Shown here: in pieces, positions 1 to 341 of the stretch
How positions within the stretch are numbered: position 1 is the first letter of the stretch
Layout of the letters: each line of letters begins with the position of its first letter
Assembly: GCF_003334335.1 (NCBI RefSeq)
Contig: NZ_QOWQ01000213.1
Strand: one strand, 5' to 3'
DNA length: 341 nucleotides
Source of the DNA: Escherichia coli
GTDB taxonomy: Bacteria > Pseudomonadota > Gammaproteobacteria > Enterobacterales > Enterobacteriaceae
Made by a program: the position numbers and the translations under genes
The notes under the pieces: generated by a model
Seen by the model: the letters and a program-made list of their open reading frames with translations, nothing else
What the model was told of the DNA's origin: nothing
Databases searched by the model: none

Positions 1-341
1 AACCAGATTGAAGGCGATCTCGTTAAAACAGTGGGCAAAGCTTTCCCCCGGGACTCCCGTGCACCGGAGCGGTGGCCATCAGGGACCATTACCGTCAGGG
101 TTTATGACGATCAGCCGTTTGACCGGCAGATTGTTATTCCGGCGGTGGCATTCAGTGGCGCTAAGCATGAGAGAGAGCATACTGATATTTACTCCTCATG
201 CCGTCTGATAGTGCGGAAAAACGGTGCTGAAATTTATAACCGTACCGCGCTGGATAATACGCTGATTTACAGTGGCGTTATTGATATGCCTGCCGGTCAC
301 GGTCACATGACACTGGAGTTTTCGGTGTCAGCATGGCTGGT
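1..341 (+). CDS. J: Internal fragment (5' and 3' ends outside the window) of a lambdoid phage tail tip / host-specificity protein J-like gene, covering the C-terminal receptor-binding region
   Basis: Frame 1 (nt 1-3 = first codon) is open for all 113 codons with no stop. Codon choice is typical of E. coli and its phages (CTG Leu, CCG Pro, GGC/GGT Gly, CGT/CGG Arg). The translation aligns gaplessly to my recollection of the lambda J C-terminus (...GDIVKAASAAFPRQRESSVDWPSGTRTVTVTDDHPFDRQIVVLPLTFRGSKRTVSGRTTYSMCYLKVLMNGAVIYDGAANEAVQVFSRIVDMPAGRGN...). Conserved blocks are WPSGT (nt 73-87), DDxPFDRQIV (nt 106-135), YSxC (nt 190-201), NGAxIY (nt 220-237) and DMPAG (nt 283-297). Not verified by any search. 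Confidence 0.8.

Follow-up and report, generated by a model that had tools for sequence, protein, structure and literature searches.

A variable segment of a lambdoid tail-tip protein J allele from Escherichia coli and its probable role in porin contact

The C-terminal domain of the tail-tip protein J has long been regarded as the host-range determinant of phage lambda. A 341-nucleotide stretch of Escherichia coli DNA (contig NZ_QOWQ01000213.1, assembly GCF_003334335.1), referred to here as the window, encodes part of this domain in a lambdoid J, and a first-pass annotation of its sequence proposed that positions 136-276 are a variable stretch between conserved scaffold blocks and a candidate specificity-determining segment. 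This raises the question of whether the segment takes part in receptor contact and, if so, which receptor is involved. Our reading, to which we assign a probability of roughly 85%, is that nt 136-276 encode the centre of the immunoglobulin-like (Ig-like) beta-sandwich receptor-binding domain (RBD) of a lambdoid J, that two loops within it, L2 and L3, are two of four loops that contact a porin, and that the receptor is most likely OmpC.

Position, variability and fold of the segment

Frame +1 is open over the whole window (nt 1-341, plus strand, as for all features given below), and it encodes residues 1017-1129 of a 1157-residue lambdoid tail-tip (central fibre) protein J, as identified by DNA match, alignment to lambda J, NCBIfam and Pfam. 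Several complete E. coli chromosomes carry an annotated gpJ gene with a stretch 100% identical to the window; one of them is that of UPEC-245U, whose J gene has 1157 codons. The full 1157-residue protein belongs to NCBIfam family NF049904 (lambda_TipJ), scoring 2316.9 bits over residues 1-1157 against a cutoff of 1950, and it contains the Pfam domain PF12421 (Ig_GpJ_C), matched over model positions 1-135 of 135 at J 1027-1157, or window aa 11-141, with an i-Evalue of 6.8e-38. Pfam now names this domain 'Tip attachment protein J, C-terminal receptor binding domain', and because it spans J 1027-1157 the segment at nt 136-276 lies wholly within the curated RBD.

Residue n of the window corresponds to lambda J residue n+990, and in a MAFFT alignment lambda J 991-1103 is the gapless counterpart of the window (the part aligned by phmmer is lambda 992-1100, E 6e-24). 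The segment encodes window aa 46-92 (IPAVAFSGAKHEREHTDIYSSCRLIVRKNGAEIYNRTALDNTLIYSG), equivalent to lambda 1036-1082, in agreement with the coordinates, sequence and gapless alignment given by the first-pass annotation, and the 15 of its 47 residues that are identical to lambda (32%) are exactly the isolated anchors listed there. The conserved blocks named on either side were also read correctly: DDQPFDRQIV (nt 106-135) is identical to lambda DDHPFDRQIV at nine of ten positions, and DMPAG (nt 283-297) at five of five. The change of character proposed for nt 160-186 is real, with AKHEREHTD carrying a net charge of about -1 and two histidines and lambda SKRTVSGRT a charge of +3. The protein as a whole is ~65% identical to lambda, a figure that falls to ~41-50% within the RBD and to 28% across the final 40 residues.

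To place the segment within J as a whole we used an alignment of 74 distinct J proteins, derived from 80 IMG/VR loci encoding full-length relatives together with locus L001 and lambda. Averaged over columns, entropy is 0.395 bits in the whole of J, 0.30 in J 1-983, 1.06 in the RBD and 1.30 in the segment, which ranks fifth among 1111 sliding windows of 47 residues; the ten top windows all begin at J 1058-1070. A diverse set of 27 C-terminal domains, 43-94% identical and with an effective number of sequences (Neff) of 12, was drawn from a word search of 5.8 billion proteins and a HMMER search of 1.84 billion representatives. In this set the segment averages 1.85 bits and the rest of the domain 1.25, placing it fourth of 127. 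Eight fragment, frameshifted or chimeric open reading frames (ORFs; P0019, P0025, P0027, P0034, P0036, P0038, P0098 and P0155) were left out of the alignments.

Multiple alignment thus locates the variability maximum of J at nt 136-276, bordered by near-invariant DDxPFD and DMPAG turns. The picture of a single variable stretch with conserved flanks holds only in part, however. The segment is highly variable and its immediate borders are conserved, but it consists of two loops together with scaffold strands and represents two of four hot spots; a hypervariable, indel-rich loop lies just upstream of the DDxPFDRQIV block, and variable positions at aa 100 and 102 and a fourth loop lie downstream of DMPAG. 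When L2 and L3 are removed the mean entropy of the segment is 1.38 bits. Four continuous high-entropy runs also carry indels (aa 17-25, 54-63, 80-88 and 110-122), and we refer to these as loops L1 to L4. Mean entropy is 2.22 bits in the four loops, 0.42 in three conserved turns and 1.20 in the remainder of the domain, which is mostly strands; the loops differ from all other positions, strands and turns included, with a Mann-Whitney p of 5e-11, and the turns from the rest with a p of 8e-4.

An AlphaFold2 model built on the alignment has a mean predicted local distance difference test score (pLDDT) of 83, a predicted template modelling score (pTM) of 0.73 and eight strands, at window aa 8-13, 28-36, 42-52 (continuing to 57), 62-73, 76-83, 87-95, 101-113 and 126-132. 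Foldseek matched it with a probability of 1.00 to Protein Data Bank (PDB) entries 9wcb, 9wca, 8xck and 8xcj. The template modelling (TM) score is 0.78 to 9wcb (63% identical), whose title is 'Open state of A8 gpJ 713 central tail fiber with OmpC G17 from E. coli EDL933', and 0.83 and 0.79 to lambda gpJ in its closed (8xck) and LamB-bound (8xcj) forms, so that the domain shares the fold of these proteins.

The variable and conserved elements alternate along the chain. L1, with the core RDSRAPERW (nt 49-75, aa 17-25, lambda 1007-1015 including S1012), has entropies of 1.8-3.0 bits and a gap fraction of at most 0.47. The turn between strands beta2 and beta3, DDQPFD (nt 106-123, aa 36-41), is near invariant and has no strand in the model at aa 37-41; its entropy is 0 at D36, D37 and F40 and 0.12 bits at D41, whereas Q38 (0.98) and P39 (2.53) vary. 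Strand beta3 follows at nt 124-159 (aa 42-53, RQIVIPAVAFSG; assigned as strand by DSSP at model residues 75-85, or window aa 42-52), and the segment begins in its second half. Hairpin L2, AKHEREHTDI (nt 160-189, aa 54-63, lambda 1044-1053), has its tip at REHT (aa 58-61, nt 172-183); with entropies of 2.1-3.3 bits and an insertion after aa 59 in 73% of the weighted sequences, it is the strongest variability and indel hot spot.

Beyond L2 lies strand beta4, YSSCRLIVRK (nt 190-219, aa 64-73; DSSP strand at aa 62-73), in which the entropies at aa 66-72 alternate (2.9, 0.4, 3.1, 0.4, 2.9, 0.0 and 2.3 bits), pointing to one exposed and one buried face. The NG turn between beta4 and beta5 (nt 220-225, aa 74-75) is invariant, with zero entropy at both positions, and falls in an inter-strand gap of the model. 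Hairpin L3, NRTALDNTL (nt 238-264, aa 80-88, lambda 1070-1078), has its tip at LDN (aa 84-86, nt 250-258), entropies of 1.8-3.0 bits and an insertion after aa 84 in 17% of the weighted sequences. The near-invariant DMPAG turn (aa 95-99, nt 283-297) connects beta6 to beta7, with entropies of 0-0.65 bits, and L4 begins at nt 328-341 and extends past the 3' end of the window (aa 110-122, SAWLVNNWYPTAS, lambda 1100-1112 including N1107; entropies 1.7-3.0 bits, indels at aa 115-121). In order, then, the segment comprises half of beta3, L2, beta4, the NG turn, beta5, L3 and half of beta6.

This arrangement bears on the proposal that the substituted residues form surface loops. The model predicts that AKHEREHTD lies at the tip of the beta3-beta4 hairpin and NRTALDNTL in the beta5-beta6 hairpin. 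Two outcomes had been named as telling against the proposal, a position in the buried core and variability no higher than in the rest of J, and neither was seen. The four variable runs are the beta1-beta2, beta3-beta4, beta5-beta6 and beta7-beta8 connections; since successive runs are two strands apart, all four should lie at the same end of the sandwich, with the conserved turns at the other. Because the chain comes into the domain from the shaft of the fibre, the beta1-beta2 connection, and hence all four variable loops, would be distal. From this topology we infer that L2 and L3 are distal ('bottom') in this allele and that the DDxPFD, NG and DMPAG turns are fibre-proximal ('top').

Two of the loci, L076 and L081, encode a much more divergent RBD type, with a C-terminal region of 190 residues ending ...TMKASASGFVES. 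DMPAG is missing from this type and an insertion of 19 residues follows window aa 92, but DDQSFDR is retained. Among the motifs of the domain, DDxxFDR therefore seems the most persistent.

The positions of these loops coincide with published observations. Maddamsetti et al. (2018; PMC6646904) aligned 1207 J homologues and defined a 'specificity region' at residues 960-1132, in which amino-acid and gap entropy peaks at lambda 1012, 1048-1049, 1077-1078 and 1107, corresponding to aa 22, 58-59, 87-88 and 117 of the window and thus to L1 through L4. The same study found that the four indels co-occur, that they sit on long branches, that the specificity region acts as an independently inherited module, and that residues 1012 and 1107 are strictly required for the host-range shift of lambda to OmpF. 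Ge and Wang (2024; PMC11101478) described exactly four bottom loops, L1-L4, that insert into LamB. Andrews and Fields (bioRxiv 2020.06.25.171868) reported a deep mutational scan of the last 150 residues of lambda J and found the region unusually intolerant of mutation; they placed the receptor-binding portion at their positions ~50-100, or lambda ~1032-1082, nearly the segment considered here. Their diversity peaks are at lambda 1012, 1049, 1079 and 1090 (their positions 67 and 97 being lambda 1049 and 1079), and their host-specific variants fall at diverse, mutation-intolerant positions. Earlier publications already cover the four hot spots, the part they play in the structure and the use of this very allele in engineering; the observation is statistically strong, and our finding is correct but ordinary. 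The interpretation of nt 136-276 as a specificity segment is supported in substance, although equally important determinants, L1 and L4, lie outside it.

Receptor of this allele

Brodel et al. (2024; Nature 632:877, PMC11338833) joined the C-termini of natural gpJ proteins to lambda gpJ at residue 964, and two of the chimeras, A8 and 1A2, delivered DNA in an OmpC-dependent manner into cells lacking lamB. According to their source data 1A2 delivers to a lamB- ompC- strain carrying the OmpC of EDL933 but not that of MG1655, whereas A8 accepts both variants. We compared the 1A2 C-terminus in their Supplementary Information with the allele in the window and recovered 163 of its 173 residues by exact 4-mers in three frames, the 1A2 sequence being recoded, taken from a machine-read PDF with insertion and deletion errors, and translated piecewise. 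The sole clear substitution is R58K in L2 (AKHEKEHTD for AKHEREHTD). The RBD is thus identical in sequence, to this extent, to one shown experimentally to use OmpC, and A8, which is 63% identical, is a second such RBD. Because its C-terminus reads as the 1A2 RBD this allele very probably binds OmpC, and by the same comparison the accepted form is most likely that of EDL933 rather than of K-12, with selectivity among OmpC alleles.

An alternative is that this allele binds LamB, as do lambda and phage 21, and that the loop differences merely track LamB polymorphism. The homologous RBDs of lambda (41% identical) and phage 21 (62%) do natively use LamB, which lends the idea some initial appeal. 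We nevertheless consider it very unlikely, as the near-identical 1A2 RBD works in a lamB- ompC- host only when a suitable OmpC is supplied, and the structure of the homologue A8 has been solved bound to OmpC.

If OmpC is the receptor, contact may proceed as described for related phages. Loops L1-L4 at the distal end of each RBD would insert into the extracellular vestibule of a trimeric outer-membrane porin, a step that we take, like the OmpC dependence of 1A2, from the literature. Porin binding would then spread the RBDs apart and trigger opening of the tail tip. In this allele L2 and L3 are expected to contact OmpC, and their sequence may help to decide which porin, and which allele of that porin, is accepted. 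The DDxPFD, NG and DMPAG turns would face the fibre shaft and be constrained by the fold and by packing of the trimer.

Selection and recombination

The ratio of non-synonymous to synonymous substitution rates (dN/dS) was estimated by the Nei-Gojobori method, pooled over all pairs of the 74 genes; the method is crude, and recombination is present. The ratio is 0.39 for the segment, 0.20 for J 1-983, 0.31 for the whole RBD, 0.74 for L1, 1.1 for L3, 0.49 for L4 and 0.04 for DMPAG; the pooled value of 0.20 for L2 is unreliable, as dS is saturated (proportion of synonymous differences, pS, 0.68) and the alignment runs across indels. In the dN/dS analysis suggested by the first-pass annotation, the ratio is thus raised in the segment relative to J 1-983 but remains below 1.

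Variation among close relatives is concentrated in the loops. We examined 32 distinct RBD DNA alleles whose proteins are at least 85% identical to the window (31 are distinct over the window itself), and their replacements cluster in L2 (aa 55, 57, 58, 60, 61 and 63) and L4 (aa 110, 113, 114 and 116), with six of the 24 variable residues in L2. In L2 the proportion of non-synonymous differences (pN) is 0.094 and pS is 0.48, compared with 0.023 and 0.16 for the RBD, and nucleotide diversity reaches 0.15-0.16 at nt 151-195 versus no more than 0.105 in every other 15-nt bin. The allele at locus L023 is nearly identical to the window except for a patch of 11 differences at nt 171-212, covering the L2 tip and beta4, and that at L053 has the same pattern, which suggests that short gene-conversion patches occur within the RBD in addition to exchange of the whole module. 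Variation of this kind bears the mark of patches recombined between old haplotypes rather than of recent sweeps by point mutations.

Exchange of the whole module is seen in phage 2G7b. Andrews and Fields noted that the identity of its J to lambda exceeds 97% up to residue 982 but drops to 40-60% over the final ~150 residues, and that the two phages differ in host range. We find that it is 97.5% identical to lambda over residues 1-963, and that it matches the allele in the window at 100% over lambda 964-990 and 99.3% over 991-1132. As to its receptor, the literature yielded only a passing mention of a host range different from that of lambda.

These patterns allow a different explanation, namely that the diversity of the segment is mainly a by-product of module and patch recombination between anciently diverged RBD lineages. 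On this view the diversity would not mark the segment as deciding specificity more than other parts of the domain, and the actual switches may be L1 and L4, as they are in lambda. The 2G7b exchange, the discrete patch in L023 and L053 and the high within-clade pS of L2 are all in keeping with it, as is the position outside the segment of both residues required for OmpF use by lambda, 1012 in L1 and 1107 in L4 (PMC6646904). Recombination would explain how variants spread, but not why they are placed at four loops of the same end with invariant turns opposite; moreover indels at 1048-49 and 1077-78 accompany the ones at 1012 and 1107 and sit on long branches (PMC6646904), and the peaks at lambda 1049 and 1079 and the intolerant host-specific positions of Andrews and Fields argue in the same direction. 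We regard this explanation as unlikely.

Neutral drift in weakly constrained surface loops, with no effect on host range, is a further alternative that could be advanced from the aggregate dN/dS below 1 and the general tolerance of surface loops to change. It is highly improbable, given that the deep mutational scan found the C-terminal 150 residues unusually intolerant and host-specific variants at intolerant positions, that the variation gathers at one end of the domain, and that 1A2 and A8 accept different variants of OmpC.

In the explanation that we favour, with L2 and L3 as porin-contact loops, diversity would have two sources, the exchange of whole RBD modules at about lambda residue 964 and shorter recombination patches over the L2 hairpin, and would be maintained by selection from polymorphic host porins. 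Diversifying selection on the segment is plausible from the spatial pattern and the literature, and is not demonstrated by dN/dS here. A more specific and doubtful suggestion is that patches covering L2 and beta4 (~nt 156-213) act as cassettes, swapped among the several lambdoid prophages resident in one E. coli genome, that retune acceptance of OmpC alleles, with the acidic and histidine-rich L2 discriminating EDL933-type from K-12-type OmpC. The patch in L023 and L053, the threefold higher pS of L2, and a median of 2 and maximum of 9 copies of the window region (at least 80% DNA identity) per genome are compatible with this suggestion and do not demonstrate it.

Several points weigh against the explanation that we favour. 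The dN/dS of the segment does not exceed 1, with a pooled value of 0.39 and only L3 at about 1.1, and among the close alleles it is 0.14. Synonymous divergence in L2 is as inflated as non-synonymous divergence, which points to recombination between old lineages rather than recent positive selection. Lambda and phage 21 both use LamB despite the differences between them and this allele, so that large loop differences alone do not imply another receptor, and the quality of the 1A2 source sequence, given above, counts on the same side. Finally, the 'bottom' placing of L2 and L3 is an argument from strand topology and the published count of four loops; residue ranges for L1-L4 are given neither in the main text or supplements of Ge and Wang (2024) nor in the Ur-lambda paper. 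What is observed is four loops with variability and indels and conserved turns opposite to them, and topology indicates which end is distal.

Genomic context and comparison with known systems

The J gene occupies its expected place in a lambda-like tail cluster. In UPEC-245U (NZ_CP049845) the order is tape measure, tail protein, minor tail protein L, C40 peptidase, tail assembly protein and gpJ, followed by an Ail/Lom (lom-like) gene and then tail (side) fibre genes, so that J comes after the tape measure and the tail genes that follow it and before lom and the side-fibre genes. In L001 the region beyond J, lom and the side-fibre genes contains, at 10098-11201 in the tail-fibre/moron region, a gene annotated 'YadA C-terminal domain-containing protein', that is, by its annotation, a trimeric autotransporter adhesin anchor. 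The J genes of L059-L073 have 1208-1230 codons and carry a 73-residue insertion (RTEVTQLEEDIRQRMD...SQGQSEN) after J residue 838, heptad-like and charged and located in the alpha-helical shaft region. Lambda J is ~26 residues shorter than the J studied here at this same site, which indicates that shaft length differs among J alleles.

The allele is widespread. At the DNA level, phages 2G7b and PhiR5_1 match the window at 99.1% identity; for VT1-Sakai, many Stx2a-converting phages and PPompW phages the figure is 98.5%. The window region is present at 80% DNA identity or more in 3359 of 5426 complete E. coli genomes (62%). Thirty of the E. coli places that match the RBD region at this threshold are on plasmids.

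Other candidate features of the window were considered. Frameshifted database entries are all that speaks for a +2-frame ORF at nt 8-208 (66 codons), and nothing independent supports the two short minus-strand ORFs; these readings were set aside. An Rfam scan of the window gave one sub-threshold chance match only (18.6 bits, where the gathering score is 39; E 0.29). A run of five cytosines (TTCCCCCGGG, nt 44-48), outside the segment, is a likely frameshift site in some database copies. Proteins P0019, P0036 and P0038 follow the J sequence as far as KAFP and then continue with the +2-frame peptide GTPVHRSGGHQ..., the switch coinciding with this run; P0019 is back in frame ~20 residues later, and P0098 is out of frame far upstream of the run. 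The frameshifted copies are either pseudogenised J genes in decaying prophages or homopolymer sequencing errors.

The value of these results lies in annotation and little in discovery: the 2018 study described the four loops with their indels and co-variation, structures have been solved with LamB (2024) and with OmpC (2026), and RBD swaps at residue 964 are already in use for retargeting lambda particles. The allele is common in E. coli and on Stx-converting phages, and the label of a probable OmpC-type RBD, equivalent to '1A2', can be given to it, with the L2 hairpin as the place where close alleles differ most.

Four known systems provide the closest comparisons. The lambda gpJ RBD (~990-1132; 8XCK closed, 8XCJ LamB-bound) aligns with the window without gaps, has the same fold and Pfam domain, and shows the same arrangement of four variable loops at the distal end and conserved turns at DDxPFD, NG and DMPAG. 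The two are 41% identical in the RBD and 32% in the segment, and they differ in that lambda uses LamB and has a basic L2, whereas the receptor of this allele is most likely OmpC and its L2 is acidic and histidine-rich. Phage 21 J, with a 62% identical RBD of the same family, also has LamB as its native receptor; its loops are of the A8-like length class, and in this phage the use of new porins evolves through a few J mutations.

The other two systems use OmpC. A8 gpJ (9WCA closed, 9WCB with EDL933 OmpC) is the best match among solved structures (E 9e-31, 63% identical) and an OmpC-binding member of the same RBD family, but four residues are deleted from its L1 and five are inserted in its L2 (GKHENFNSNNQQSYW), the latter exactly where AKHEREHTD lies, and it accepts K-12 OmpC, which 1A2 does not. 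The C-terminal module of 1A2, from lambda position 964 onwards, reads as the same protein as the allele in the window, with R58K as the only clear difference. 1A2 is an engineered, recoded fusion to the N-terminal 963 residues of lambda, whereas the window belongs to a natural prophage gene whose N-terminal part is ~70% identical to lambda.

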